A stretch of 63,513 bases of DNA, filler included, from Reclinomonas americana ATCC 50394 (lineage: Eukaryota): NCBI GenBank assembly GCA_048213135.1. It is 21 parts of 21 records of this genome, joined end to end, with 100 filler letters (N's around TTAATTAATTAA, not from the genome) between each part and the next. Parts side by side here need not be neighbours in the genome. Positions count along the whole stretch, not along the records: positions 41,814 to 43,858 come from AFZH01023702.1; positions 43,959 to 45,336 come from AFZH01023703.1; positions 45,437 to 47,094 come from AFZH01023704.1; 18 more parts are not named here. The stretch is one strand, 5' to 3'. Positions within the stretch are counted from its first letter, which is position 1; every line of letters starts with the position of its first letter. Positions 466 through 53,578 of this stretch are shown one piece after another. A program made the position numbers and the translations under genes. Under the pieces are notes generated by a model. That model was not told where the DNA came from, made no database searches, and worked only from the letters and a program-made list of their open reading frames with translations.

Positions 466-1545
466 TCAGTCCACCGGCCCGCCAACGGTCCGGCACGACA
501 GATTCACGGCGCCTGCCAAGGTCGCCTCGTATTCTTCGGCCAATCGCCGGCATAGCTCGGATGCAGCGGGCAGGTCATCGATCGCACCGACACCCTGCCC
601 GGCCGCCCAGATATCGCGCCAGGCCTTGGCCTCCGTCGTACCGAAATCATAGCTCGCCGGCTTGCCGAGATCGTCGGGATCGCGCCCCGCTGCCAGGATG
701 CTCGCACGCAGGAAATTGCCATGCACGCCACTGATCGCCGGGGTGTAGACGATGTCGGCGGCAGACGAATCGAGCAGCATCGAGCGCAGCGCCTGCGGCG
801 CCATGCTCTCCTGCGTTGCCATGAAACGCGTGCCGAGATAGGCCATGTCGGCGCCCGCCAGCCGGGCGGCCGCGACCTGCGCTCCATTGCTCAAAGCCCC
901 GCCAAGCACGAGGGTACCGTCGAAGATGCGGCGGATATCGGCGAGCGCCGCGAACGGATTGAGCGGCCCGGCATGGCCGCCGGCGCCAGCAGAGACAGCA
1001 ATCAGCCCGTCGACGCCAGCATCGGCCGCCTTGGCGGCAAAGGCGAGGTTGATCACNNNNNNNNNNNNNNNNNNNNNNNNNNNNNNNNNNNNNNNNNNNN
1101 TTAATTAATTAANNNNNNNNNNNNNNNNNNNNNNNNNNNNNNNNNNNNNNNNNNNNAAGGCGAGGTTGATCACATCATGGAAGACCAACCCGCCATAGCC
1201 ATGTACCGCCTTGATCAGGTCGCGATTGAGACCAAGCGAGGTGATGACCAGCGGCACCTTGCGCTCGACCACGACGGCAAGATCGGCCTCCAGCCGCGGA
1301 TTGCTGCGGTGAACCACCAGGTTGACACCGAAAGGCGCAACCTCACCCCCAACTCCCAGCCGCCCTTCGATCTCATCGAGCCAGTCGGCGAAGCCGGCGG
1401 TGGTCCGCTGGTTGAGCGCCGGGAAACTGCCGACGACGCCATTGCGGCAGCAGGAGACGACGAGATCCGGCCCCGACATCAGGAACATCGGCGCGGCGAT
1501 GACGGGAACGCGCAGGCGTCCGGCGAAAGCGGCAGGCAACGGCAA
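466..1545 (-). CDS. Nitronate monooxygenase / 2-nitropropane dioxygenase family flavoprotein (bacterial), split by a linker
   Basis: Motifs PVIAAPMF, AGAGGHAG, GADMAYLGTRF and WAAGQG. The two halves share a 17-bp overlap (1040-1056 = 1157-1173), so they form one gene. Confidence 0.9.
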
Positions 1546-16053: not shown

Positions 16054-16791
16054 AAGAAGAGAAGGCCACCGTTTAACGCATGCATCTGCGCGGCATCCTC
16101 GCGAGAACCCGGAACTCGTCTGACTACACACACACATTGTTGCACAACCAGTGCCGGATGCCTGTGGGGGAGCGTCCGTGAGTCGGGAAGAGGAAGTGTA
16201 GGGGGTGATGGGGAGGACAACGTACCGTGATGCGCATGAAGAGCGTGGAGCGGTCATACGCAAAGGCATGTTTGGTGAACTGGACCAAGAAGCGCCCTTC
16301 ATCAACAAAACACTTCATTCACCACATTCCAATAATGCGATATATATCCCTAGGTCTCGGGGGTTCGGTCCGCAGTGGGATGTCGTGGATCGAGGGTCCA
16401 CCCGTCGTACACCCCGCCACATCGTCAGGTGGAGGGCCAGTCATCGCTGGGAGGGGGGGGGGGGCGGGGGCGGGGGNNNNNNNNNNNNNNNNNNNNNNNN
16501 NNNNNNNNNNNNNNNNNNNNTTAATTAATTAANNNNNNNNNNNNNNNNNNNNNNNNNNNNNNNNNNNNNNNNNNNNCCCCCTTCTCTCCTCTCTCCTCCT
16601 CTCCCTCCCTCCCTCCTCCCTCCCTCCTCCCTCCCTCTCCCTCCCTCCTCCCTCCCTCCTCCCTCCCTCCTCCCTCCCTCCACCTCCCTCCCTCCCTCTC
16701 CTTCCTTCTTCTCCCTCTCCCTCCCTCCCTCCCTGCCTCCCTCCCTCCCCTCTTTCCCCTCTCCCTGTCACTCACGCTCGTCTCCCCACAG

Positions 16792-18434
16792 TGGTCAACG
16801 CGATCATTCACCCGGACTTGCAGACACCGATCTTCCCGCTCTTCCGCATGTCATGTCAGGTGCCAGTCAACATGGTGCTGGTGGCCGCCATGTTGCAAGC
16901 GCGATCAGTGAGTCTTGCATGCAGAAAAGATTCCAAGATCCTCTGGTTTGTCTCATTTCTCGCTGTGTGTGTCTCATTCGTGCAGATCCCGGCCGTGTTC
17001 ATGGCGCAGACTGCGAACCAAGTCTTCAACGTGTGTGTCAACCACGCCAATCGTAATGCGTCGAATCAAATGAGCACGGAGCAGTTGGCGATCTCGACGG
17101 GTGCGGCGATTGGGTCGGCGCTGATCACGTCGATTGGACTCAACGAGGGTGTCAAGCGGGCGGCGCTGTCGCCGGGCGTCAAGAGCTTTGCGTTGCGAGT
17201 TGAGTGGGAGAGGGAGGGAGAAGGGGGGAAAGGAGGAGGGTGAAGGGGAAGAGGGATGTGGGGGCACGGAGGAGAGGGAAACGAGCATATGGGCAATAGT
17301 GGGGCAAAGTGTTGCAATGCGAGGTAATAGTAGAGGAAGGAAAAGCAGACGAGAGGTGCAATGTGAGTGAGGAGCGAGACGAGAGAGGGAAACGAGCAAC
17401 TGAGCAATGGTGAGGCGAAGTCATGGGAAAGCAGACGAGGGGGCGAGGAAGTAGGAAGCGCGGCTCAACGAGCTAACAAAACAACATTGGGCGAAGTGGT
17501 AGTAGTAGAGGGGAAGGGAAAGCAGAACCGCGATGTGGGGAGCAGGGGTGCAGCCAGTGAGGAACGCGGCGAGAGGGAATCGAAGTGTTGCGATGCGACG
17601 ACAGAAAGGAAAAAGCGGAGCGATGTGGGGGCAGGGGTGCAGCGAGTGAGGAAGGAGGATGGCAGTGAGACTGCGAGGAAATGGATGGGTAAGAAGAAGA
17701 ATGAGTAGTGGAGTGTCGCGCCGTCAGGGGCGCGATAGTTGACGGCGGGAAAGAGTGAGAGACTGAACAGACAGGAAGATGAAGGGCAGCTGGGCCACAG
17801 AGAATGGAGAGCGCACCTTACGGTAAGAGGGGGCTAAATGCAAGAGAGAGAAATCCGCACACAATGTGTCGTTCCGCATCTCTCTCCCGCTATCCCTCCC
17901 TTTCTCTTTCACTCACCCCTTCTCTCTCTCTGTCGCAGTTCGTCCCCTTCGTCGCCGTGGCCGTGGCCAACGTGTGCAACACGGGCGCCATGCGCTGGAC
18001 GGAGATGCAGGGCGGCATTGACGTCAAGGACGCCGATGGCAACGTGCTTGGTCGCAGCCCCACCGCCGGTCGCATGGCCGTGATGCAGACCATCATTTGC
18101 CGTGTCTCCGCCTCCATCCCCGTCATGGCCCTCACACCGATGATCATGTTTGGCCTCGAGCTGTCGAGCTTTGTCAAGTCGCGGCCAAAGGTCGTCAACC
18201 TGCTCACTCTGAGTTGCGCAGCACTTTCATGTCGCATCCCTCTTGTCCTTCATCTGATTCGTGCATGTTGCAGTCGTCACTGGCGCCATGATTTGGCTGG
18301 CAGTTCCACTGACGCTGGCCATCTTCCCGCAACAAGCGTCGGTGGAGGCGTCGGCACTGGAGCCCCAGTTCCACAACCTCGTCGATCGCAACGGACGACG
18401 CATCGAGACCATCTACTTTAACAAGGGCCTTTGA
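16792..18434 (+). CDS. SFXN: Sideroflexin (mitochondrial tricarboxylate/serine carrier family), 5' truncated
   Basis: IHPD..IFPLFRMS, NQVFNVCVNHANRNAS, RFVPFVAVAVAN and the terminal YFNKGL*. Confidence 0.95.
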
Positions 18435-30253: not shown

Positions 30254-32656
30254 ATGACGATGGCGTGGACCAGTGTCTTTGTCGCGGTAGTGTTGCTGGT
30301 GGCCATGTCTGCGGTCAGCGTTCGTTGCGTCTCTTTTCCTCCTGCGATACGTATACAGAAGTACACTAAGAAGCGTTCATGTGCGTCTCCCACTCCCAAC
30401 TGACCCCATCATCATCTATATGCAGATGGAAAAGAAAGCACGACTTGCGCCGCTGTGCCGCACGAGTCGAAGCGCATTTGGTGGTCGGTGGCCTCCAATG
30501 CCGACGGCACTAAGCTGGCGGCCGTGGCCGAGTTCGGCCGCATCTACACCTCCACCGACTCGGGTGCGACGTGGACGCCGCGCGACACGAACCGCTACTG
30601 GGTCAGTGTGGCCTCCAGCAGCGACGGCACCAAGTTGGTGGCCTGCGTGTACTGTGGTGGTCAGATCTACACCTCCTCCGACTCGGGCGCGACGTGGACG
30701 CCGCGCGCGTCGGTGCAAGCGTGGTCGTCGGTGGCCTCCAGCGCCGACGGTACCAAGCTGGTGGCCGTGGCCTTCAGTGACTCGATTTACACCTCCACTG
30801 ACTCGGGCGCGACGTGGACGCCGCGCGCGTCCCACCGCGATTGGGTCTATGTGGCCTCCAGCGCTGACGGCACCAAGTTGGTGGCCGTGGTGAATGGCGG
30901 CCAGATCTACACCTCCACCGATTCGGGTGCGACGTGGACGGCCCGCGACTCCAGTCGACCGTGGGCGGCCGTGGCCTCCAGCGCGGATGGCGCCAAGCTG
31001 GTGGCGGTCACCCACGGTGGTCAGATCTACACCTCCACCGATTCCGGCGCAACGTGGACGGCGCGCGAGTCGGCGCGATTGTGGCGATCGGTGGCCTCAA
31101 GCAGCGACGGGTCGAAGCTGGTGGCTGTGGTCGGCAACGACAAGATCTACACGTCGAGCAACTCGGGTGTGACGTGGTCGGCTGTAGACTCGAATCGCAA
31201 CTGGTTTGCCGTGGCCTCCAACGCCGCCGGCACGAAGGTGGTGGCGAGTGTGTACGACGGACAGATCTACACGTTGGATGTCAGCACGTGCGCGCCGTGC
31301 TCGGGCCACGGCACGTTGAACAACGACGGTTCGTGCACGTGCTCCGGCGACTACGTGAATGCCACTTGCAACTGCAGTCCCTCGGTGACGTGCTCCGGCC
31401 ACGGAATGTGCCAGAGCGACGGCACGTGCCAGTGCAGCAACAACTATTACGGTGCCTCGTGCAATGTGAACTGTGTGGCGGCGACGACGTGCTCGGGTAA
31501 CGGAACGTGCAAGAGTGACGGCACGTGCCAGTGCAGCGCTGGTTTCACTGGAGCGGCGTGCGGCACTGCAACTTCAACCTGCGTGGCGGCGACGACGTGC
31601 TCCGGCAACGGCACGTGCAAGCCTGACGGTACATGCCAGTGCAACAACAACTACTACGGTGCCTCGTGCAATGTGAACTGTGTGGCGGCGACGGCATGCT
31701 CCGGTCACGGAACATGTAAGACAGACGGCACATGCCAGTGCACGGGCGACTACACCAACGCCAACTGCAACTGCAGTCCCTCTATCACGTGCTCCGGTCA
31801 TGGAACGTGCAAGACTGACGGTACGTGCCAGTGCAATGCCAACTATTACGGCACCTCGTGCAACGTGAACTGCGTGGCGGCGACGACATGCTCCGGCAAC
31901 GGCACGTGCAAGCCTGACGGTACATGCCAGTGCAACAACAACTACTACGGTGCTTCGTGCAACGTGAACTGCGTGGCGGCGACGACTTGCTCCGGTCATG
32001 GAACGTGCAAGACTGACGGTACGTGCCAGTGCACGGGCGACTACTCCAACGCCAACTGCAACTGCAGTCCCTCCGCCACGTGCTCTGGTCATGGAACGTG
32101 CAAGACGGACGGCACATGTCTGTGTACGGGCGACTACAGCAATGCCAGCTGCAACTGCAGTCCCTCCGCCACGTGCTCCGGCCACGGAACGTGCAACGCC
32201 GATGGTACTTGCCAGTGCACGGGCGACTACACCAATGCCAGCTGCAACTGCAGTCCCAGCGTCACGTGCGGTGGAGGCGGGTGCAGCCTTGACGGTACCT
32301 GCGAGTGCTTGGCGGACGATTTGCAGTGCTCAAGTGCCTCCCAGTGCTGCGGTGGTTTTTGCAATTACGGGTTCTGCTCGACCAGCTGCTCCGCAGTCGA
32401 CAGCTTGTGCTACGATTCCATGGAGTGCTGCAGCGGTATATGCGACAGCGGCATGTGTGTGCTGCCGCCTGCCCTTGAATGCCTTTTCGAGCACGCCCCG
32501 TGCTTTTTGACCGAATTCTGCTGTGAGTATTCCCCGTACTGTGTTAATGGTTTTTGCTCGAGGACTTGTGGCGCTGTCGGTGCTGGTTGCACGTCCGACG
32601 TCGACTGCTGCTTTCACAATTGCAGCAACAATGTTTGCGCCAATCCCCCCATTTAA
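30254..32656 (+). CDS. Secreted Asp-box (BNR) beta-propeller + EGF-like repeats + four knottin-like repeats, paralog A
   Basis: Signal-peptide exon; seven SVASSADGTKLVA..GQIYTSTDSGATWT blades; CSGHGTC..DGTCQC repeats; C-terminal C-C-CC-C-C units. Confidence 0.85.
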
Positions 32657-33051: not shown

Positions 33052-34754
33052 TCTTTCTTTGCTCGACCTGTGCTCGCTCTCTCTTCTTCCACAGCGTTCC
33101 CATCTTCACTCCTTCACTGCGCCCTCTTTCAACTCATGCCTCTCCTCTCTGTTTTCTTTCTCTCCCCTTGCGCAGCACTCTCAGTTCTCCATGCCATTGT
33201 CTCTCTCCTGTGTCTTTTTTTCTTTCCATTCTCCTTGTGATCCCGTCCTTCCCAGCTTCTCTTCTCTTCTCTTCACACTCATGTTTCATTCTCAGCTCAC
33301 TCGCCGCAGCACTCACCGACTCCCCTCCCCCTCCACAACACTCGCGGTTCTCTTTCCCCGTCGAATCTTGTCTCCCTTGACAACACACCTTCCCCCACCC
33401 CCGGCACTCTGCCTCCTTTTCCTCTCCACTTCGCGCCTTCCTGTGATGGGCACATGCGTATGCTGCCTCCCTTGCTCACTCTCATCTCCTTCCCACAGCG
33501 CCATAATGTCCCTCTTGTCTTCGCATCAACCTCCAGCATCCCTCTCCGCCCTGCCTCTTCCACTCTTTCACCTTGCCATCTTCGTCACAACACACCCTCC
33601 CCAGCACTCACCAACTCTGTTGCCTCTTAGTTCTCATAATCAGCATCCTTCTCCCTCTGTCTTCTTTTCGTTTGCCCATCTTGCCTCTTGTGAATGACGT
33701 TGCGAGAATCCGTGCTCTGTGTCTTGTCTCCCGCCTTAAAACAACTCTCAAAATGTCCCCACACTTCTCCCATATGCATGAACTCACCACTTACCTTGCT
33801 CTTTTCTCAGTACTCTTCTTCATCGTCACAGCTGCCTCTCTCTTTCTCGAACCTCAGTGTCTTCCTCGCTTTTTGCCTTCTCTTCTGTTGTCAACGAGCC
33901 TGCTCGCTCAGTGGCATCGCCCGCTCGTGAGTCTTGTCGCTGCGCTTGCTCAAAACCGGACCTCTTCCGCTGTTCCACAGATGGCGTGCTTGTGTGACGA
34001 CCAGCCTTCCTCGTTCTCTGTCAAAGTATGCATCTCACTCTCCTGCCTCCTTGCACATTTACTCCAGCACACCAACTGACATCTCCCCTTTGTTCTGCAT
34101 CCCAACTTGTTCCCTCTTTTGTATTACTCTCTTCCGTTTTGCCAAAGTTGGTGAAACAGAGGGGAGACAATGAGAGGGGAATGAAAGGATTGCACGAGGA
34201 AGAACGAAAGTGAGCAACACCTAGTTTCGTGCATTCTTCCCATGAGCAGATACCACTGACAGTTCGGTAGCGTCATGCCCATGCCAATGCCGGGAGGACA
34301 GCGAATATCCCGGCGAGCTTTATTGTTGGCTGTATCGATTTTCTTTGCAGTGCGTGTGCGTGTGAAGCGGACGCAAGATTCATAACTACATCACCACCCT
34401 GTGACAGCAGACAGACAACAACGCCCACTGTATCCTTCGCCATGGTGAGCAATCGCAACCGCACTGTGTGCCGCGCACGCGTCCTTGTTTTCTTGCAAAC
34501 AACCAGACTCACGCGCACACAAGCGCGGACAGTACACACGCATGCGCACGCCCACGTCTCCTCTAGCAGCGACAGTTGAATGAGTGAGAGAGAGAGAGAG
34601 AGGGAGAGAGCATCGCACATTTTTGTTCATCACTTCGCCCGATATTCGCGCGCATGTCTGTTTTTCTCACCGCGCATGCTGTGTGCCCCACCACAGTGTG
34701 TGAACGAAGCAAGTAACAATAGCAACGACAACAATGAGCTCCCAGACAAGCAAG

Positions 34755-36724
34755 ATGACGATGGCGTGGACCAGCGTGCTGGCCGTGCTGGTGTTGCTGG
34801 TGGCCATGTCCGCGGTCAGCGTTCGTTGCGTCTCTTTTTCTCCTTCGCGGTCATGTGCATCTCTTCCACTCATCATCTGAACGTAGGCGGACAAGCGGCG
34901 CCCACTTGCACCGCCGTGGCGCACGAATCCAAGCGCATTTGGTGGTCCGTTGCCTCCAATGCCGACGGCAGCAAGCTGGCGGCCGTGGTCGAGTTCGGCC
35001 GCATCTACACCTCCACCGACTCGGGTGCGACGTGGACGCCGCGCGACACGAACCGCTACTGGGTCAGTGTGGCCTCCAGCAGCGACGGCTCGAAGTTGGT
35101 GGCCTGCGTGTACTGTGGTGGTCAGATCTACACCTCCACCGACTCGGGCGCGACGTGGACACCGCGCGCGTCGGTGCAAGCGTGGTCGGCTGTGGCCTCC
35201 AGTGCCGATGGCACGAAGCTGGTGGCTGTGGCCTTCAGTGACTCGATCTACACCTCCACGGACTCGGGCGCAACGTGGACGCCGCGCGCGTCCCACCGCG
35301 ATTGGGTCTATGTGGCCTCCAGCGCTGACGGCACCAAGTTGGTGGCCGTGGTGAATGGCGGGCAGATCTACACCTCCACCGACTCGGGCGCGACGTGGAC
35401 GGCCCGCGACTCCAATCGACCGTGGGCGGCAGTGGCCTCCAGCGCGGACGGCGCCAAGCTGGTGGCCGTCACCCACGGTGGTCAGATCTACACCTCCACC
35501 GATTCCGGAGCGACGTGGACGGCTCGCGAGTCGGCGCGGCTGTGGCGTTCGGTGGCCTCGAGCAGCGACGGATCGAAGCTGGTGGCGGTGGTCGGCAACG
35601 ACAAGATCTATACGTCGAGCAACTCGGGTGTGTCGTGGACGGCTCGCGACTCCGACCGCAACTGGTTTGCCGTGGCCTCCAATGCCGCCGGCACAAAGGT
35701 GGTGGCGAGTGTGTATGACGGTCAGATCTACACGCTGGACGTCAGCACGTGCGCTCCGTGCTCGGGCCACGGCACGTTGAACAACGACGGGTCATGCACG
35801 TGCGCCGGCGACTACACCAATGCCACTTGCAACTGCAGTCCCTCGGTGACGTGCTCCGGCCACGGAACGTGCAAGAGTGACGGCTCGTGCCAGTGTGCCA
35901 CCAACTACTACGGTGCCTCGTGCAATGTGAACTGTGTGGCGACGACGACGTGCTCGGGTAACGGAACGTGCAAGAGTGACGGCACGTGCCAGTGTGCCAC
36001 CAACTATTACGGTGCCTCGTGCAATGTGAACTGTGTGGCATCCACCACGTGTTCCGGCCACGGCACGTGCGAAAGTGACGGTACGTGCCAATGCAGCGCT
36101 GGTTTCACCGGTGCAGCGTGCGGCACTGCAACTTCGAATTCAAACTGCGTGGCGGCTACGACGTGCTCTGGTCACGGATCGTGCAACCCTGACGGATCAT
36201 GCGCATGCGACGCTGACTATTACGGTGCCTCGTGCAACGTGAACTGTGTGGCGGCGACGACATGCACCGGTAACGGAACGTGCAAGAGTGACGGCACGTG
36301 CCTGTGCAATGACGATTACGTCAACCCCAGCTGCAACTGCAGTCCCTCTACCAACTGCTCTAGCCTATTCGCTTGCAAGGCTGACGGTATGTGCGACTGC
36401 ACCGCCAACAATGAGTCGTGCACAAGCGCAAGCCAGTGCTGCGGTGGCCATTGTGGCTACGGGGTGTGCTCCTCGTCTTGCCTTGAGCTCGCAGAGCTGT
36501 GTTACGATTCGAGCGAATGCTGCACGGGCTATTGCAACAGCGGCCAGTGTGCAATTGCCTGCTTGCAAGAAACTGAGTTCTGCACCGATGCAGACCAGTG
36601 CTGTTCCAGCGCTCCTCACTGTGTGCATGGTAACTGCTCGTCGACTTGCGGTGCAGCCTTCTTTAGCTGCACTCGCAACACGGATTGTTGCAGTGGGGCA
36701 TGTGCAAACCAAAGGTGCATTTGA
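34755..36724 (+). CDS. Secreted Asp-box + EGF + knottin-repeat protein, paralog B
   Basis: Same architecture and intron as paralog A, with fewer EGF units. Confidence 0.85.
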
Positions 36725-41713: not shown

Positions 41714-42356
41714 NNNNNNNNNNNNNNNNNNNNNNNNNNNNNNNNNNNNNNNNNNNNTTAATTAATTAANNNNNNNNNNNNNNNNNNNNNNNNNNNNNNN
41801 NNNNNNNNNNNNNAACTAAAAATGATCGGAGTAAAGACTCCGATGGACAAAGTGAAGCCCGCAAACCAAGCGGGCCCATACACAGCGAATGCATGGTTCG
41901 CGCAACTCCGATCATTGTACGGCAGCGGTGGTGGTGTTGGTGGTGGCAACTTCATCAGACCGGCGGTGAGCTTCGAATTCGTTCCCAGCCGAAGCGAATT
42001 CGAATTCGAATCACAGCTGCAGGTGCAACTGGGATACAGCTATGCTAATTCCTGTAGCACTATGATCTCCTATTGTGCGTGAACGCGAAATCGAGACAAC
42101 TGCAGCTGCAGCTTCAAGTGCCTTGCGCATGCATGCCGAATTCGAATTCGATTTCGAATTTGAATGCAGGCGCTGCTGCACGAGGAAACCCGTTGCAAAG
42201 ACCGCCAATGGAGCGCCTCATTTGCAGTGTGTATCCCCACCGTCGCCGCGAAGACGACAACCTTGGAAACAGCTTCGTTTACAGTTTGTCCGACCGCGAG
42301 CACTCCCGGTTTGTCACCGCAAACCCCTTTTTTTCTTGGCCTTTTTAGAGAGAAGA

Positions 42357-42887
42357 ATGGAGTTGATGGTGAAGCGTCTGTCGGCAACCGCCACCCTGCC
42401 CACCCGGGCCTCAGAGCTCGCAGCTGGCTACGATCTGTCAAGGTTTGCTCAATCTGTCTCTCACTCACACGCACTTTCATCACTCACCTCTCCCTCTCTC
42501 CCTCTCTCACGCAGCGCGGAGGAGTCGGTGGTCCCCGCGCGCGGCCGCGCACTGATCAAGACCGACTTGGCGATCGCCGTGCCTCTGGGCCACTACGGGC
42601 GAGTGGCACCGCGCTCGGGCTTGACATGGAAGAATGGACTCGACACGGGCGCTGGCGTCATCGACGCCGACTACCGTGGCAATGTCGGTGTGATCCTGTT
42701 CAACCACTCGGATCAGGATTTCGCAGTGCATGTGGGCGATCGCATCGCGCAGTTGATCATTGAGCGAATTTCCACGCCACAAGTGCTGGAGACTCTCGGC
42801 GATCTGCCAGACACGGTGCGCGGGGAGGGCGGCTTTGGATCGACGGGAGTTGGCTCCGCGTCGTCTGCTGCTGCTGGCGTGCAGTGA
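42357..42887 (+). CDS. DUT: dUTP diphosphatase, 2 exons
   Basis: [31 protein letters not shown] and [10 protein letters not shown] motifs. Confidence 0.97.
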
Positions 42888-42975: not shown

Positions 42976-43650
42976 TCACTTGGCAGTCGCTTCAGCAGGG
43001 GCGCGCGCTCGCCGTGGCGAGTGGCGCCGTTTCAACAGGAATACACCGTCCGGCCGCGAGAAGATGCCGTGACGGTCGGCACACTCAAAGTACTGCACGC
43101 CATTCACCGAGCCGTCATTGCGGCCGTCTGGGTCGGGAGGGTGTGGGTGAGAAAAAGACCCAAGACTGCCATCAGCATCTCGCAAAGCCATTCGCTTTGT
43201 TGTTACAAAGACAGAAATCCACGCACCACAGAGACACTATCTCCTTTCTTCTCCTCCACTGCGTGAACACAGAAACACAATCTCCTTCCTCACCCACAGC
43301 GAGCACTCAAACCCCATCTGACCACTTAACCACAAGCCACGCCCACTTGCACAATCTCCTTCTTCTCAACGTGCAAACAAAGCCATCCGAACAAAGCGTC
43401 GAAACAAGCCTCTTTCCGCCACAATATCATCCTTCTATCCATTCTCCTTCCCCACTTTCCGCACTCACCGGGGTGCACCAACTCAATTCCAATCCACAGA
43501 CCCTCCGAAAACGCCGGCTCTCCCACATAGCGCACCGTGCCAGGCAAACGCATAGTGGTCACCTCTACACGCTCGCCAATCTCCGGCAAGCGCTTCGGCT
43601 TTGGCGGCGACTGCGGTGACGGCGGTGACGCAGCTTGCTCGGCATCCTGT
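42976..43650 (-). CDS. CAP-Gly domain exons (C-terminal end of a protein)
   Basis: IGERVEV..GTVRYVGEPAFSEGLWIGIEL..DGRNDGSVNGVQYFEC..HGIF. Confidence 0.9.
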
Positions 43651-43958
43651 TGATGAATGTCAGCGGGCATATACACACACACAGCAACTCTCCCTTTGCT
43701 CCGCACGCAACGACTTGCTGTACGGGATCGTACGGCTGCAACACACGAGCCAGCTTCTCGTATTGGTGAGTCCGTGCCAAGACGGCGAGTTGCGCGAGTG
43801 CATTCTCCTGCCACCCACCAGTCTGTGAGACAAATGCCCACCCTCACACAATAAGCATNNNNNNNNNNNNNNNNNNNNNNNNNNNNNNNNNNNNNNNNNN
43901 NNTTAATTAATTAANNNNNNNNNNNNNNNNNNNNNNNNNNNNNNNNNNNNNNNNNNNN

Positions 43959-46900
43959 GCACTCCAGCACATGCCGAACAAGTTCCGGCGAGAACTCTGG
44001 CTGGTTGGCGTACTCTGACAGCTTGTTGATTGTGCTCGGCGTCAGTCGGTCCATGTCGTAAATCTCCATGACGTGGCGCAAGCGCGGGTCCTGCATTTCG
44101 ATCAACACGCATGTGAGCGCGAGTGATGCACACAAACATACTTGAATCAGCAGACACGACCAAACCTTTAGCGCGGTGCGCACTTCGTCCATGGTCTGCG
44201 GTTTTCCGAGAACCAACATAAGCGCCTTCAGCACGACTTCGATTTCTGGTCTGAACTGCTTCATGTCGCGTAGTTGTCGCAGGTCCGCCGCTTCAGGGAG
44301 CGGGAGAGCTGCTGACGCCTCGTCTCTCGCCAGAACAGCCTGCGACCGTGGTTGAGAACAAGCGACCAGGATTGGTAAACTAAAAAGCGAGCACGCGCAC
44401 ACACCTGCTCCACTTGCAACGAGGCGATTTCGCACTCATCGCGGGCATTGTCGACGGCGCGTTGCAGCCGCACAATGGTCTCCTCCAGCTCGCCCAGTGT
44501 CTGCCAGCGTTGAATGAATAAGCAATCAACAGCGAACTGCGAATCGCTGGCACAAGGATAATAACTCTGTCACTCACTCACTCACTACACACACAAACAC
44601 ACATTTCCAAGGTACTACATAAAATTTCGCCTGTCTCTGTTCGCACCAGTTTCCGATTCTGACACTTGCTCTTTCGTCGTTTTCCCCATCTCCACGGATT
44701 CCAATACAACTTACGCCTACTGCTGTCTTTCCTTACTCCCCTTCCCCTTCCCCATTTCCCCTTTCCCCCTATTACCCCTTCCACCACTCACCATCAAATC
44801 CAGCTCATTCGTGCTCAGTGCCTGCAGAAAACTCGAATCGCTCTCGGAGGTCTTTGGTCGGCGCAGCGGCGCACTCCCAGCCGCCAGCGGCCGCACGTGC
44901 CGCATGCGCTCCTCGGACAGCAACTGCGGTCGATACTGCAGCGGCACTCGCGAGCCACTGCCACCGGCGGCCGCCAACTCCACACCGTCGCTCTGCAGCT
45001 CGCCTTCGGAGGGAAGGGCGGCGACTGCATCCAGCAGCGACTGCGGAATCGCTTGCACGTCACCGTGCCCGAGCTGCTTCGCCTGGCGACTGTTGGGCGG
45101 TGACACGTCACCCCTCGCATCGTCACCAGCCACGTCAACATATTGCAACTGGCGTCCATTGGTGGCGTACGGTGGCGGCTGCCGACCCGAGTTGTCCGGC
45201 GACGACTCAATGCGTTCGACGGCATCGAGAACACGCTGAATGCTGGTCTCGAAATCCACCTCCTGCAATACACGAACACGCACACGCATGAGACAAAGCA
45301 CACAAAAATATCTTCATCAACTCGCCCGCCCGCACCNNNNNNNNNNNNNNNNNNNNNNNNNNNNNNNNNNNNNNNNNNNNTTAATTAATTAANNNNNNNN
45401 NNNNNNNNNNNNNNNNNNNNNNNNNNNNNNNNNNNNCGGTGTGATGGCTACTTGCATTGACGGATCGTCCGGATCTGTGCATCGCCCAAACAGAAGATGA
45501 GCACAGAGCGCACAAAACTCTGCTGCATTTCTCTTGTCTTGCGCACCCGGGATAATGTCCTGCACAGTGGCATACTCGAGCTTCTTGGTGATTTCGTGCA
45601 GACGCCGATGCGCGACATCCAGTCGATCCCTGTAGGGAGTGACAGTGGCCATCAACTCGGCGTGCAGCACCGCGTTGAGCACCCAGCTGCACAGACCCTG
45701 TGCGAGACACGAAAGAGTCGGAATACTGCATGAAGAGATCGAAAACCCTCGAAGTATTGGTTGGCAAACCTGTGCCGCCTTGGAGATCTTGCCGACAGCG
45801 TGCGGCGTGAATGCCGGGTCCTCCGTGTATGTCTTGACACGGCGCAACACTTGCGGCGTCAACTGCGTCTCAAAATCGTACTCCAGCAGCTGCTGTCGAA
45901 AGCGCGCCCCCTGCAACGTCTCCTTGGCGGCGTCAACCGTCTCAGGCCGGCCCAACAATACCATCACCGCTTTCAACACCTACACGTCGACCAAAGGGTT
46001 CAGAAAATGTGTGTCGATTCGCAGATCACCACCCGAACTGCCACGCAACATTCTCGACGAGTGGCGGTGCGTGCGAAAAGTAGCGCAATTGATTAATATC
46101 GGAGAGTGCCACACTCGACAGCGACAGCAGCGAGGATTCGACCAGCGGCGCCACTCCTTCGTACTCCTTCTCAGCTAACCGCACGGCCTCCAGCGCTTGA
46201 TCACGCTCCAGCAGCAGGCGACTAATGTCACTCCGACGACGCTGTACCGGGCGCAGTGAGCAAGCCAAACGCAGACGAAAAAATACATTCTCATGCGCAC
46301 ACACAGACACACCTTGGTGGAGAGTGGCGTCGTCGGCGGCACATCGACATGTAACCTCCGACTGACGCGATCCAGTCCCTCTTGTGCCAGGCGCGCCAGT
46401 TGCCGCACCGGATCGAGGCGGTGCGTCATCAACCCAAACTTCTCCATACTCGAGGCCCACTGGAACAGGCCAACAGCGGGCGGACACGTGGCCTCCACCG
46501 TCTTCCCAACGCGCACATGAGGAAAAAAAGGCACACATTGCACATTCCTCGCCAAAAAAACTCACCTGTAACCGAAACTCGGGACGCTTCGTGTACTCGG
46601 CCGCCTGGATGAGCATGGTGGGCGAGATGGTGCCACGATTAAAGTAAATCAGCTGTCGCAGACAGCTGGACTCCTTCAGCCACACTCGTGCCGCACTCAG
46701 CGTCGGTGGCTGGCAGAGGAACACCATGATGACTTTGAGTACGGTCTCCACCTGACGTCGCCATTCGGTGAGTGATTGGGAAGACCATAGGATCACATGC
46801 ACTATACACACCGGCGACGAAAGGAGCGGCAGAGAGCGCAGCTTGTGCACATCTTGCATGGAGAGCGCAGAGATGCCGGCCAGGTAGCGGTTGAGAGCGG

Positions 46901-47094
46901 GACCGCTCTTGCGCAGCGCACCGTCGGCCGCATCGCGGATGCGCACAAGACGTCGCTGCAGCGCCGTCAATTCCTCCTCTCCAAGTCGATCCAGCGCCGC
47001 CTCGCTGACCTCCGACTCGCGCAGACGCATCTCGTTGACATCGTCGTCGGGAGGTGTGATCCAAATGGTGCCGCGCTGCTGACGCGCAGCCGCT
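43959..47094 (-). CDS. Protein with three dynein stalk/microtubule-binding (MTBD)-like repeats, multi-exon, spans linkers
   Basis: Three units such as DINQLRYFSHAPPLVENVLKAVMVLLG..F..QLLEYD..PAFTPHAVGKISKAAQGLCSWV..V.P. No AAA motifs between units. Confidence 0.75.
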
Positions 47095-47194
47095 NNNNNN
47101 NNNNNNNNNNNNNNNNNNNNNNNNNNNNNNNNNNNNNNTTAATTAATTAANNNNNNNNNNNNNNNNNNNNNNNNNNNNNNNNNNNNNNNNNNNN

Positions 47195-48796
47195 CTCCAT
47201 CTCCGTCGGCTTCATCGGCTACCCCAATGTCGGCAAGAGCTCCATCATCAACACTCTGGTCAAGAAGCGTGCCTGCTCCGTGGCACCCATTCCCGGTCAG
47301 ACCAAGGTGAGCAGTTGCCAGTGCCATTATTTCTCGCTCTTCCCTTCGTCCCCTCTGACTTTTTTTCCTTTTTCATTCCCAGATCTGGCAGTACGTGTCG
47401 CTCTTTGGCCGCGTGTACCTGATCGATTGCCCCGGTGTGGTGCATCCGAGTGCCGACTCGTCTGACTCGGACTGCGTGCTGCGCTCGGTCGTGCGTGTGG
47501 AGGACCTTGCGGAGCCGGAGCAATACGTGGAGGATGTGATGCGCCGTGTGCAACCGCAGCATTTGAAGCGCACGTACGGCATTGCGGACTACACCGACCA
47601 CGTTGACTTCCTCGAGCAGTACGCCGTGCAATCAGGACGCCTGCTGAAGGCGGGCGAGCCAGACGTGCCGACGGCTGCCAAGATGATGCTGTACGACTGG
47701 CAGCGCGGTCGTCTGCCGTGGTTTGTGCCGCCGCCCAAGCGCGAGGGTGACGAGGCTTTCGCCACGGCCGGTGCCGACGGGGATGATGGCGAGGTGGAGT
47801 ACGACGAGGACGGCAAGCGAATCAAGGGCACCAAGAAGCGCACGACACGGACCAAGGACGGCGAGGCGATTCTGCCGCAGCTGCGACAGAACTTTGCGGG
47901 TCTGCGGCCGATGGCGGCCATGGAGAACGAGGTCGATCCCGATCCGGAGGATGCGGACGAGGGGTGAGTGTGTGTGTGTGTGCGTGTGCTTGCGTCGATC
48001 GAGTCCAGTTGTGATGCTGACGTGCCTCCGTGTGCGTGCCAGTGATGACCTCATTGACTCGGCCAAGGACGAGAGCATGTACGAGGCGGTGATGAGCGAG
48101 GCCCCGGTGGAGGGCTTGTTGGAGGATGCCACGAGGCGAGGAGTGGAAGAGCGACTTCAGCGCGGCGAAGAGGAGGACGAGGACGCAGAAGAGGAAGACG
48201 AGGAGGAGGAGGAGGAGGAGGATGAGAAAGAACAGGGCAGCCGGAGATCGAACAAGAAGAAGGAGGTGCCAATGGCGGTGGAGGATGAGGAGGCGGAGGA
48301 CTCGGAGAGCGACGTGGAGTGGGACGCTGTCATGCGCAGCGCTGCAGCGCTGTCCGACGGCGCACCGTTGCCAGGAGCTAGCTTCGTGCAGAATGGCTCT
48401 GAGCATCATGCGGCAGACCACCACGATGACGATGACGACGACGAGGCGGAGGAGATGGAGGCCGACTTGGTGGAGCGCGATGAGGCGCGATCCGCTCGCC
48501 GCGCCCGTGCCACCCCCGCAGAGGCCAAGATGGAGGCCAAGAAGCAGCGTCGACGCATGCGCAAGGGCATTAAGCGCGAGCTGGCGCGTATCGAGGAGGC
48601 TGAAGAAGACGAGGAAGACGACGAAGAGGCTGCAGTGGTGGAAGTGGAGGAGCCGAAGGCAAAAACAACGCCCAAGTCGAAGCAGAAGAAGTCCACCGGT
48701 GGCAAGAAGGCCACTGCCAACGCGGCAGCGGCCAGCGGCAGCGGCAAGAAGCGACGAAAGATTGGGGCTGCCAAGTTTGTTGTGACGTCGGAGTAA
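47195..48796 (+). CDS. GNL2: Nucleolar GTP-binding protein 2, C-terminal part
   Basis: [42 protein letters not shown] and [13 protein letters not shown], followed by an acidic/basic tail. Confidence 0.93.
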
Positions 48797-49516: not shown

Positions 49517-52500
49517 ATCGTGGGTGTCGGTCTCACCAACACCACCGACGTGCATGTGGTGGCACCGGGTGCGACGTGCGCCGCCGGAGCCATCGACATG
49601 GACGTGAAAATCACACTCGGCACAGTCACCGACGGCAAGGTCACGGTGACGGCCACTTCTGTGGCTCCCAACGCCGGCTACACGTTGTGCATTGGCCTGT
49701 ACGGCAACGCTGGCGGCCCGGTTCCGGTCACTGGCGGCACCCTCACGGTGCAGGGTCCGAATGCGGCGACTCCGCTGCAACCCAACACATTCGACACGAA
49801 TCAGCCACTGGCACCGATGACGTTTACTGGTTTCGGTGTGGATGGTGGCGAGCAATTCAAGTTTGTGCCACCAGGCTCCGATTGTGCCGCCACAGCACAG
49901 CCGGCGTACATTGCGTCGAACTTGGGCGCACACACTGCCACGACACTGGTGGTGAACACGCAGAGCACGACTCCCGGCCCCTTCGACACGTGCATCCTCT
50001 TTGCCGGCACCACCCACTGGTTCTCCGCCGGGACCGTCAGCTTCCGCGGCTCCTCTGCCGTGACGCCGTTGGCTCTGGGCATCACGGCGGCCCAGCAGAT
50101 CACGATCAGCGGCTACGGTTTCAGCACCGGCGACGCCGTCAAGGTCATTGCCACGGGAGGCACCAACAGCTGCGCTGCGACGCCGCAATCGGCGAATGTG
50201 CCAGTGACCAACGTGAATGTGGTCAATGCATCGCGCCTGCTGGCCACGCTCACTCCGTCGGCCGTCGGTCAGTACCAGGTGTGTGTCGCGTTCTCGGCGA
50301 CACCCACAGTGTTTGTGGCGGTGCCGAATGGACAGATTGGTGTATTCAGTTGCGGCGTTGCTCGAAATCACCGTGGTGTCTCGCACATTTCTCATTAATC
50401 CGCCCCGTGCACAGACGCCGTCACCTACGGCATCTATCCGAGTCTGCTGGCCACCGACTCAATGAGCACCGTGTACATCAGCGGCCAGAACCTGCAGCCG
50501 AGCAACGAGCTGCGCGTGATTGCGGCCGCCGGCAACTGCCAGGTGGAGGAACCTGTGGAACTGGCGGCGGTGAAGCTCGGCACCGTCACCGGCACTGCAG
50601 CGTTGCTGACTGTGCCTGTGTACACGAACTCTACCACTGTCGACGGCAAGCTGTGCATCAAGTACACGGACGCACCGACATTTGAGCCGGTGACCAACGG
50701 AGCGGTGCAGGTCAGCAACACGGTCGCACCGACGACCACCGGGGTACAGCCGACCACACTACCGCAGTACATTGGCGAGATGGTGACGGTAACGGGCACA
50801 CAACTGAATGCTATTGAGCAGGTGACGCATGAGAGTGTGTGTGTGCATGCGTTAAAGGGCGCGTCGGTACTGACACAAGTGTCTTTGAAGATTATTCCGG
50901 TGGCGGCGGGGACATTGTGCACACAAAAACCGATGCCCACTCCGGCGCCGGCCACCACGTTGACGTCACTGACTGTGGTATCGCCGACGTCGTTGCATGT
51001 GGCTCTCGTCACCACCGGCACAGTTGGTTTCAAGTTGTGCGCGCTGTTCTCTGGCGCGGCGACATTTGCCGACGTGACTGGCAGCACCATTACCGTGCTG
51101 AGTCCCACACTCACCTCGTTTGCGCCGACGTCCATGCCGCCGTCGTTGGAGACGATGGTGATTTTCCAAGGATCCAATCTGCAGCAATTCGGCAATCAGA
51201 TTGTGGCTCTGACGCCGCAGACGAAAACGTGCGTGCCGGGCTCCACCAGCGACGCCAGCATCACCGTAGGCGCCATCACAGTCAACAATGCCTTCAACCA
51301 GCTCTCGGTGCCGCTGACATCGACTGCTCCCAGCAGCACGCAGTATCGCCTGTGCGTGCAATTTGCTGGTGGTGCATTGCAGGATGCCACACCTGCACCC
51401 GTCCTGCTCATCCAAGGTGAGAGTCGAGCGAACGAAAGGAGAAAGTCTTGTCGACTTACAACGCGCTTCCTGCATTGCCAACCTCACAGCGGCCTCGGCA
51501 ACCAGCATGTCACCGAACACCATGGCGGTTGCACAGCCGACGACATTGACAGTGAACGGCGTGGTCTTGAGTGCGAGCAACCTGCTGCGCTTGGTCGACG
51601 CCACCACGGACTGCGCGCAGGAGATGCCGCCGATTCCGGTGAGTTGCCTGGAGTGTGTGTGTGTCTCTCTGTGCAAATCAACTGCGTGCACTTACCCTCC
51701 ATGCACGCAGGGCGTTGTCCTAATGACCAACTTTAACGTGGTCTCGACCTCCCGGCTCACGGTCGACGTGACAGTGACCGCGGCCGGCGACTACAAGATG
51801 TGTATTCTGCTCAGTGGCACCACATACTCCAACGTCCTCAACGGCTTCCTCACTGTCAATGGTGAGCCCGTACCGACGGCGCTTCTGTGTGTTCATTGTT
51901 GAAGGCCAGACTCTCACTCCCTGTGCTCCGTTGTCGCAGGCGGCTCGTTGGGCGGATTCGGCTTCCCGCTTGTCCTCGGTATTGGAGCCACCACTACTTT
52001 TACCATCAACGGATCTAGCCTGGCGGCTCCGGGCACCGTCTTCCGCGTGCTCTCTCCTGGCGCCGCATGCGCCACGGCCCCTTCGCCCGTCAACGACAAT
52101 AGTTTCACCGTCGGTGATATTGCCGGCAGCGCTGATGGTCTCACGCTCACCGTGCCAGTGACTGGCACTATGGCGGGCATGGGCTTCATTCCGTGCATTC
52201 GCATGAGTGGCCAGGCGGCGTTCCAGGCAGTGCCAGGCGGCACGTTCCGCGTCACCAGTTATGAGTTGTCGCCATTTTCCCACCTGCGAAAAGTCGATCG
52301 TTGCTCACTTTATGCCATGCATGCGTGCGTAGCGCCTACGTTGACCTCCATATCGGCTCCGCCAATGGTGGTCGGCGTCTTTAATAATGTGATGCTCACC
52401 GGCGACGCATTGTCGGCATACGAGAAGGTCCTGGTTATCGACGCACCGGCTGCCACAAGCGCTCGCGACGCCCGCATGGTGGCGGCGGAGACATGCGCCA

Positions 52501-53578
52501 CAGCCACGGCAAACTCGAACAATGTTCTCGTCAATCCGGCAACCCTCAACGAATCCAACTACGCTCTTGTGGTGCCGACGAATCCGCTCATGGAGGGCCT
52601 CAATTTTGTTTTTTGTGTCAAGTTCAGTGGCACCGGTGTGTCGCCGACGCCAGAGCCAGTACCCGGCTCGCTCCCCTCCATTGGTCAGTCGCGCGTACCC
52701 AATGTTCATCACTCTCTCTTTCTCCCTCTCACGCATCTCGTTCCTCGGGCACAGTGTCCTCGGCTACGGGCTTTTCACCGCTCCGCATTATTGCTGCAGT
52801 CGGTGTTTCGCAGTACATGAGCGTCGTCGGGCAGGGATTCCGCACCGGTGACGGTGTGGTGATTGTGGAAGGGAATTCGCTCTGCACCGGCCAGCCGACG
52901 AACGCTGACGGTATCACCATTGCGTCGCTAACGGCGTCGGATGATGGGCAATCGTTGGTGTTCAGGGTGACGGCAGATCTGGCGGGCCAGTACACACTGT
53001 GCGTGCGTTTGACGCCGTCGACCTCGTACCACGTGGTACCCGGTGGCACGCTCTCAGTCGTGGCAGTCACCACCGACGGCTTCAACCCCAACACCGTGAT
53101 TATCAACGCGGCCACCACAGTCACCATTGCCGGCAGTGGGTTCTCCGACAACGATCAAGTGCGTGTTGTGCGTTGGATTGACGTTTGCGTCGGAACCAAC
53201 GTGCAGAACGCGGCCGGCGTCGAACTCGGTGCGATCTCACACGACGCAGCGTATGCGGAGACGTACTTTGATATTACGCCGAGCAATGCTGGCGACTACC
53301 GCATCTGCATCTTGTTTGACGGCCTGCCGTCGTACAGTCGCGTCACCGGTGGCAAGCTGACGGTCAACCATTCAGGATGTTGCGTGACAAATGAGAATGG
53401 AGAAGAGGAGTATCGCTGTTGCTGATACGTGTCGTTGTTCGCAGCGGGCGGCATTCATACATGGGCCATTGCTCTCATTGTAATCTTCTCGGGCATTGCC
53501 CTTGCCGGCATTGTGCTGTTGATCGTCGGTTGCAAGCGAGGCTGGTTCACACACCGCGGCAAGTATCGCTCTCTATAA
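49517..53578 (+). CDS. Large type-I membrane protein with IPT/TIG-like Ig repeats, 5' truncated
   Basis: About 100-aa repeats (P..ITISGxGF..D.V.V..C..G.Y..C). Last exon has TM WAIALIVIFSGIALAGIVLLIVGC and a tail ending GKYRSL*. Confidence 0.75.

Follow-up and report, generated by a model that had tools for sequence, protein, structure and literature searches.

A minus-strand locus of Reclinomonas americana with tandem dynein-type microtubule-binding domains, no dynein motor in view and a probable CAP-Gly end

Dynein's microtubule-binding domain (MTBD) is usually considered solely as a motor's tip, its affinity being set by the AAA ring via the stalk. A locus of Reclinomonas americana ATCC 50394 (assembly GCA_048213135.1) raises the question of whether the same module can be used in series and without the motor, since three MTBD-like units and a CAP-Gly domain lie on the minus strand between positions 42976 and 47094 of the window, by which we mean the whole stretch of DNA analysed (63,513 nucleotides). 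The answer toward which we lean, with modest confidence, is that the locus is one minus-strand gene of at least 13 exons and at least 835 residues that encodes a multivalent non-motor microtubule-associated protein (MAP). The 63.5-kb window holds 40 runs of 44 N paired around TTAATTAATTAA, that is, 20 artificial spacers, and thus represents about 21 short contigs chained together rather than one molecule; the spacer length is artificial and does not reflect the true gap size. The DNA is of eukaryotic type with short GT-AG introns. Three contigs are concerned here, contig A (41814-43858), contig B (43959-45336) and contig C (45437-47094), which, read in the order C, B, A, hold the 3′ part of the gene and possibly all of it.

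The assignment of the units to the dynein family is clearest for unit 2 (45566..46241, minus strand, contig C), which is composed of exons 46241-46050, 45979-45770 and 45697-about 45566 and ends with a short stub of the second coiled-coil segment (CC2). Its 3′ end is unsure, the sole donor that is phase-compatible with the next exon being GTGCAG at 45565. Unit 2 scored 33.3 bits (E 3.4e-8) against the Pfam MT family (PF12777), which exceeds the 24-bit gathering cut-off. Searching the PDB by phmmer returned 17 matches, and in each the aligned part was the MTBD of a dynein-type heavy chain, the best being DNAH6 (5.5e-7); 16 are named dynein and the other is a 4191-amino-acid (aa) "AAA+ ATPase domain-containing protein" of an axoneme entry. 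When the full dyneins P0048 (4367 aa) and P0044 (3377 aa) were compared with the whole window by tblastn, both matched it at unit 2 (E 8e-13 and 4e-12, respectively).

Structure prediction had been proposed in an earlier note on this DNA as a check of the units, and the models of units 1 and 2 did match dynein MTBDs. The AlphaFold2 (AF2) model of unit 2, made from the read-through sequence 45560-45979 and a 39-row alignment, had a pLDDT of 83.4, with values below 50 for the 18 intron-coded residues that it includes. In VIA-align, the nine top rows for this model were all dynein MTBDs (Z 11.2 to 7.1), followed by an unrelated row at Z 3.3; the best superposition was with 3err_A (Z 11.2, root mean square deviation 2.3, 113 residues aligned), and 8i3j gave Z 10.5. 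The first 17 rows of a Foldseek search were likewise dynein MTBD or stalk, with weak E-values (best, 0.038). A partial model of unit 1, covering helices H1-H5, had a pLDDT of 84.7, and its top five VIA-align rows were all dynein MTBDs over 66-67 residues, with middling Z values of 7.5-5.3 and the next row at Z 2.9. These fold tests cover unit 2 and the H1-H5 part of unit 1, and the models indicate that unit 2 folds as a dynein MTBD.

Unit 1 (46313..47094, minus strand) precedes unit 2 on contig C and is composed of exons 47094(open)-46812, 46751-46566 and 46501-46313. It comprises a stub of the first coiled-coil segment (CC1), helices H1-H6, a CC2 stub of ~22 residues and a linker of ~18 residues. 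Unit 3 (43959..44500, minus strand) lies on contig B in exons 44500-44405, 44339-44166 and 44090-43959 and comprises CC1 and H1-H5, the contig end truncating the domain after H5. Both were aligned by hhalign with a dynein-only profile (A3, made from 38 dynein fragments with the window sequence excluded). Unit 1 (46566-47093) gave E 4.6e-7 at a probability of 92.6, its H6 exon matched in register at E 4.9e-4, and unit 3 gave E 3.3e-9 at a probability of 96.1, the 25 residues coded by an intron forming a loop. With an HMM started from unit 2 and iterated over fetched matches, the scores were 68.4 bits for unit 1 and 60.9 bits for unit 3, as against −1.6 bits for the linker; among 1389 stop-to-stop frames of the window, only four reached E ≤ 0.1 with the unit-2-derived HMM, all on the minus strand of contigs B and C. 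Units 1 and 2 retain the H6 tryptophan and the conserved prolines found where H1 and CC2 start. Units 2 and 3 also matched each other by BLASTP (61.6 bits, 31% identity), and since pairwise identity among the three units is just 25-31%, duplication in the assembly cannot explain them.

Units 1 and 2 certainly belong to one reading unit. Between H6 of unit 1 and unit 2 there are, on a single contig, only the ~22 helical residues, the ~18-residue linker and ~30 residues of unit 2 CC1, so that the two MTBD-like units reported earlier within 45437-47094 are indeed separated by nothing more than helical stubs and a short linker; the third unit reported for the neighbouring fragment was also recovered, as unit 3. 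Upstream of unit 3, contig B carries an exon of 157 residues (44792..45262, minus strand) with an open frame from an AG acceptor to a GTGAGT donor and a coding-type GC pattern. The linker that it encodes is acidic (isoelectric point 4.7), rich in proline, serine, glycine and alanine, and has neither a Pfam domain nor a match to the MTBD profile.

The gene model, in which splice sites on the minus strand were set by frame, GT/AG and similarity, consists of 13 exons, and all junctions within contigs are GT...AG and in phase. The six exons of units 1 and 2 make up contig C, exon 45262-44792 and the three exons of unit 3, the last of them open, make up contig B, and contig A contributes exons 43822-43715, 43646-43469 and 43127-42976, the last closing with the stop codon TGA; the product of this model has 835 residues. 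Exons have 58-66% GC, with GC1>GC2 and a GC3 of 0.64-0.80, whereas introns and contig-end flanks have 47-54%. Most introns measure 60-75 nt, with exceptions of 291 and 341 nt, and most have a CTSAY-like motif 12-22 nt 5′ of the AG; donors are diverse (GTGAGT, GTGTGT, GTTTGS, GTTGCG and GTCGTT). Alignment with dynein fragments by hhalign and in a MAFFT alignment (A4) showed the predicted in-frame introns as private insertions of 20 and 25 codons at the expected sites. The 13 modelled exons contain no in-frame stop or frameshift, and plus-strand open reading frames (ORFs) across the gene region had zero Pfam matches and thus offer no rival gene. We also noted (TG)n runs within introns.

At the 3′ end, a P/S/K-rich spacer and a CAP-Gly domain occupy 42976..43646 (minus strand; Pfam and splice model), with coding exons 43646-43469 and 43127-42979 separated by a 341-nt GT...AG intron that splits a codon in phase 1. 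Pfam CAP_GLY (PF01302, cut-off 26.5) matched the first piece with 33.3 bits on profile positions 1-39 and the second with 41.7 bits on positions 35-64 of 65, and together they make up a complete CAP-Gly domain. Its loop reads GRNDG (43125-43111, minus strand), and a basic tail of ~20 residues follows before the stop TGA at 42978-42976. The CAP-Gly C-terminus described in the earlier note is hence present on the same strand, intact, and closes the reading frame.

The first exon of contig A, of 36 codons (43715..43822, minus strand), stands between unit 3 and these exons. Contig A opens with 36 nt of intron-like sequence and then a phase-0 acceptor accompanied by a branch-like CTCAC motif, and the exon ends at donor GTCGTT. 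It has a coding-like composition with GC1>GC2, is in phase with the CAP-Gly exons and, judged from its sequence, could represent the H6/CC2 terminus of unit 3.

No motor was found within the window. The tblastn searches with the two full dyneins returned MTBD units only and no AAA module, and Pfam scans of 29 further large ORFs and of ORFs on neighbouring contigs found no AAA-dynein, kinesin or myosin domain. Downstream of each unit there are only further units and the CAP-Gly domain and no AAA5 or AAA6, unit 1 being followed by unit 2 on the same contig after ~40 residues. Since no AAA5/6 follows any unit, a complete dynein ring is impossible and the gene is not a canonical dynein. The term "motor-less" used earlier thus holds for the sequence in view, with the qualification that the reading frame is open at 47094 and that at least ~1 kb is hidden beyond it; that the protein also lacks an N-terminal motor is our inference.

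The link of the three contigs across their gaps, drawn from order, strand, phase and composition, is a presumed one, and this weighs against our reading, as do the further points gathered in this and the next two paragraphs. Of the Pfam families named earlier as checks, MT did not match units 1 and 3 in scans of read-through frames and single exons; unit 2 (MT) and both CAP-Gly pieces (CAP_GLY) exceeded the cut-offs. The AF2 alignments consisted of dynein MTBD fragments, so that the models are biased to that fold. The tryptophan of the "TW..AK" motif, at least 90% conserved in dynein fragments, is replaced in all three units. The core net charge is +4 in unit 1, 0 in unit 2 and −1 in unit 3, compared with a median of +2 in 71 reference domains. 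Unit 1 is basic, as would be expected of a microtubule binder, whereas the neutral or slightly acidic cores make microtubule binding of units 2 and 3 less certain, and on this sequence property these two are the less convincing.

The joints between contigs, which we consider plausible, bear directly on whether the locus is one gene or two. At both joints the flanking contigs break off within the gene, with matching strand and order. At the C/B joint (spacer 45337..45436), both flanks are intron-like (51-53% GC, compared with 58-66% in exons), and the phase-0 donor at 45565 is compatible with a phase-0 acceptor at 45263. At the B/A joint (spacer 43859..43958, N44 + TTAATTAATTAA + N44, inside unit 3), contig B ends with an open frame within the domain, which requires a continuation downstream, and the BLASTP alignment of units 2 and 3 extends across the joint. 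A different arrangement would be a tandem-MTBD protein that ends in the B/A gap, next to a CAP-Gly-only protein of ~120 residues starting at an ATG near 43671. That ATG is in frame with the CAP-Gly exon, adjacency of the contigs is assumed from their order, and contig A's first exon does not significantly resemble the MTBD profile, giving only E 0.083 in hhalign on profile columns 124-134 ("Y..V...V.P") and 0.1 bit with the HMM. The combination of MT and CAP_GLY (PF01302) was, moreover, found in none of the 65 profile-search proteins and none of the 13 Pfam-scanned relatives. However, the ATG lies in a predicted intron, a stretch of intron-like composition (GC 0.53) with a (TG)n run and, 14 nt ahead of the AG, a branch-like CTGAC motif; the exon upstream is composed like coding sequence and has an in-phase acceptor, and the open frame of contig B would be left without its continuation. 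We therefore regard two separate genes as unlikely. The earlier proposal that the array is capped by CAP-Gly accordingly stands as far as the domain is intact, on the same strand and phase-compatible, while the link from contig B to contig A rests on several weak points.

The 5′ end of the gene probably lies beyond contig C, and the gap there may conceal more than a start codon. The C/D spacer (47095..47194) is 5′ of the gene and conceals both its 5′ end and the N-terminal half of a NOG2/GNL2-type nucleolar GTPase, the 3′ half of which (47196-48796, plus strand) begins with the G1 motif directly at the contig start and carries a long, acidic tail. This fragment carries MMR_HSR1 and is without the PF08153 half that all NOG2 relatives carry, from which we estimate that the gap hides at least ~1 kb. 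With the frame open at the contig end, the array could thus be the C-terminal tail of a larger protein whose hidden N-terminus holds a motor or catalytic domain (myosin, kinesin or a truncated dynein); in that case a second microtubule anchor would be provided by the MTBD array and CAP-Gly. Possible precedents are P0057, which has a myosin-head fragment and two MT stretches, and P0255, which combines EF-hand, TPR and MT. Conversely, an in-frame ATG is present at 47030-47028, 57 codons upstream of unit 1, P0003, P0056 and P0068 begin with M right at the first unit, the divergent NOG2 gene must share the same gap, and a motor domain is found nowhere in the window. On balance, we judge a hidden motor or catalytic domain improbable. 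Far less probable still is that the locus is an artefact of mis-ordered contigs or a functionless, pseudogenised relic of dynein stalk duplications. The assembly is highly fragmented, and units 1 and 3 are strongly diverged, but the 13 exons keep canonical splice sites and the codon-position GC pattern and are free of in-frame stops and frameshifts, and units 1 and 2 with their linker lie on one uninterrupted contig.

Compared with dynein, the units of the favoured single-gene model share the helical bundle H1-H6 flanked by CC1 and CC2 (PF12777) and differ in their setting. The dynein MTBD sits on a long antiparallel coiled coil of ~100 + 100 residues, whereas the coiled-coil stubs flanking the units here are ~20-35 residues each; dynein has one MTBD, whereas here there are three in a row; and the dynein MTBD lies between AAA4 and AAA5, whereas no AAA4 precedes and no AAA5/6 follows any unit in view. 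Neither a six-AAA+ ring nor a single MTBD on a long stalk, the features of a dynein motor, is thus seen in the sequence in view, while units 1 and 2 on contig C provide two MT units in one chain without dynein AAA. In CLIP-170 and p150Glued, which are plus-end-tracking proteins (+TIPs), an N-terminal CAP-Gly is followed by a long coiled coil, and CLIP-170 also has zinc knuckles and an EEY/F end. The gene here does not follow this architecture: its CAP-Gly is C-terminal, as in KIF13B and TBCB, its protein has no terminal EEY/F, and general Pfam scans found no zinc-knuckle family. The GxNDG loop and the adjoining basic stretch are shared with CAP-Gly proteins (CLIP-170, p150Glued, TBCB/TBCE and KIF13B), the loop being GRNDG in place of the usual GKNDG. 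The partner of the CAP-Gly domain also differs, being dynein MTBDs here, coiled coil and zinc knuckles in CLIP-170, the dynactin shoulder part in p150 and a kinesin motor in KIF13B. A further comparison is with DNAHX, called a "non-motile dynein heavy chain subfamily" in PMC11785096 and proposed there to be non-motor. DNAHX would resemble the present gene in being dynein-derived and proposed non-motor; going by the title of that paper it is a full heavy chain, whereas the gene here keeps the MTBD module only, in several copies.

Relatives were sought by phmmer with unit 2 against 1.8 billion representatives, which gave 58 matches at E ≤ 1e-3. None was closer than ~45% identity, and hence no orthologue was found. 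The top match, P0001, proved to be a Cys-rich repeat matching intron-coded residues and was set aside as spurious; P0070 (Chromulina) was also rejected as a relative, being an ordinary dynein fragment. Of 13 relatives scanned with Pfam, nine (P0003, P0010, P0036, P0042, P0060, P0050, P0056, P0012 and P0057) carry 2-5 MT stretches without any dynein AAA domain, and the other four are ordinary dynein fragments. These multi-MTBD protist proteins resemble the locus in their short linkers as well. P0003 has five units in 746 aa and belongs with P0068 to a group with 4-5 units and an M-start from environmental contigs; P0060 (979 aa) is transcript-derived and labelled as from the dinoflagellate Tripos fusus; and P0056 is a 386-aa transcript ORF of Diphylleia rotans with M directly before the first unit. 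The P0003/P0068 family, the dinoflagellate proteins P0060, P0010 and P0042, and P0056 of Diphylleia are all without CAP-Gly, unlike the gene here. The proteins P0057 (721 aa, environmental contig; the myosin-head fragment precedes the two MT stretches) and P0255 (1550 aa, environmental contig; an EF-hand/TPR protein with two MT units) may be genuine fusions or else chimeras produced by gene calling.

Other searches gave a similar picture. A word-indexed search with profile A1 gave seven matches, none with CAP-Gly, and a search with profile A2 gave 65 matches (483-2000 aa), almost all of them ordinary dynein fragments, with one EF-hand/TPR/MT protein. Cluster-atlas searches returned only generic PF12777 clusters, and the query with P0056 was uninformative (scores ≤ 0.84). 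Database labels of the multi-MTBD relatives read only "hypothetical" or dynein fragment, and open-access papers and bioRxiv yielded no description of motor-less or tandem dynein-MTBD proteins. These searches turned up motor-less multi-MTBD proteins in other protists and none with CAP-Gly. Motor-less MTBD arrays are thus not unique to this genome, and the coupling to CAP-Gly was seen nowhere else among the proteins examined. Altogether, what the earlier note had observed was confirmed, and its interpretation was supported in part.

A maximum-likelihood tree of 107 MTBD units, a quick search with long branches from which the origin of the units is not decidable, joined the three window units in one group (SH-aLRT 84), with ordinary dynein fragments as neighbours. 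Of the 34 tandem units, 22 fall in a supported clade (95) to which the window units do not belong, and common descent with other tandem-MTBD proteins was not supported by this tree. The branches of the window units are very long, the end branches of units 1 and 3 being 2.9 and 3.4, respectively. This grouping suggests an internal triplication in this lineage, with an origin separate from that of the other tandem proteins.

How might such a protein work? In the single-gene model, unit 1, the ~18-residue linker, unit 2, the acidic and presumably disordered ~157-residue linker, unit 3, the P/S/K-rich spacer, CAP-Gly and the basic tail would follow one another in this order. In dynein, stalk registry shifts driven by the AAA ring modulate the affinity of the MTBD. 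Since no AAA5/AAA6 stands behind any unit, there would be no ATPase ring to set the coiled-coil registry, and three stalk-less MTBDs would make affinity control by registry shift impossible. Each unit might instead dock statically on the microtubule lattice in the manner of a dynein MTBD, and the contributions of three weak binders on flexible tethers could sum up by avidity, while the 157-residue linker would permit bridging of protofilaments or of neighbouring microtubules. CAP-Gly domains bind the EEY/F tails of α-tubulin and EB proteins, and the CAP-Gly domain with its basic tail could add a second contact of this kind. The protein would then bundle, stabilise or anchor microtubules. Microtubule binding itself is deduced from the domains, and we regard static, avidity-driven lattice binding as the likeliest mode; the cross-linking or plus-end tracking put forward in the earlier note would be putative functions as well.

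The remainder of the window contains other genes. A trimeric-type dUTPase gene (42066-42887, plus strand; Pfam E 5.9e-37), apparently interrupted by an in-frame intron, converges on the CAP-Gly exon, the two stop codons being 88 nt apart. Neighbouring paralogous ORFs at 30404-32653 and 34580-36721 (both plus strand) have BNR/Sortilin-Vps10, DSL and teneurin-type EGF repeats, and long ORFs at 49517-53425 (plus strand), one of them with an IPT/TIG domain, are open at the contig start. Ordinary gene fragments at 16578-18418 (plus strand), 53673-55278 (minus strand) and 469-1056 (minus strand) are sideroflexin-, reduced-folate-carrier- and nitronate-monooxygenase-like. The best database identities of the NOG2 fragment were just 40-58% (fungi, insects and algae), indicating that the organism has no close sequenced relative in the searched collection. 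Long (GA)n/(CT)n microsatellites stand at the contig ends that abut the spacers at 41714 and 49417, and both gaps within the MTBD/CAP-Gly gene (C/B and B/A) fall in sequence of intron-like composition; the assembly breaks were probably caused by simple repeats.

The modules of this gene are known, and it is their arrangement, several MTBDs without a dynein ring and with a CAP-Gly end, that is undescribed in open-access papers and bioRxiv. As a tentative proposal, which we hold with less confidence than the single-gene model, the dynein MTBD may have been reused outside the motor as a non-motor MAP repeat more than once among protists, for example in this lineage, in dinoflagellates, in Diphylleia and in the P0003/P0068 group, with its first coupling to CAP-Gly found here. 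A natural stalk-less multi-MTBD protein would show that the module works, or was re-tuned, as an autonomous lattice binder, and would add one module to the short list of MAP building blocks. It would also be a natural experiment on how MTBDs behave without registry control, and could be used as it stands for constructs that probe the registry or affinity state into which an MTBD settles when unconstrained. The link with CAP-Gly hints that lattice and tubulin tail are detected in coincidence: if this is true, the lattice would be read by the MTBDs and a tyrosinated tubulin or EB tail by the CAP-Gly domain simultaneously, with no ATPase. The relatives in dinoflagellates, Diphylleia and environmental data point to an unrecognised protein group.

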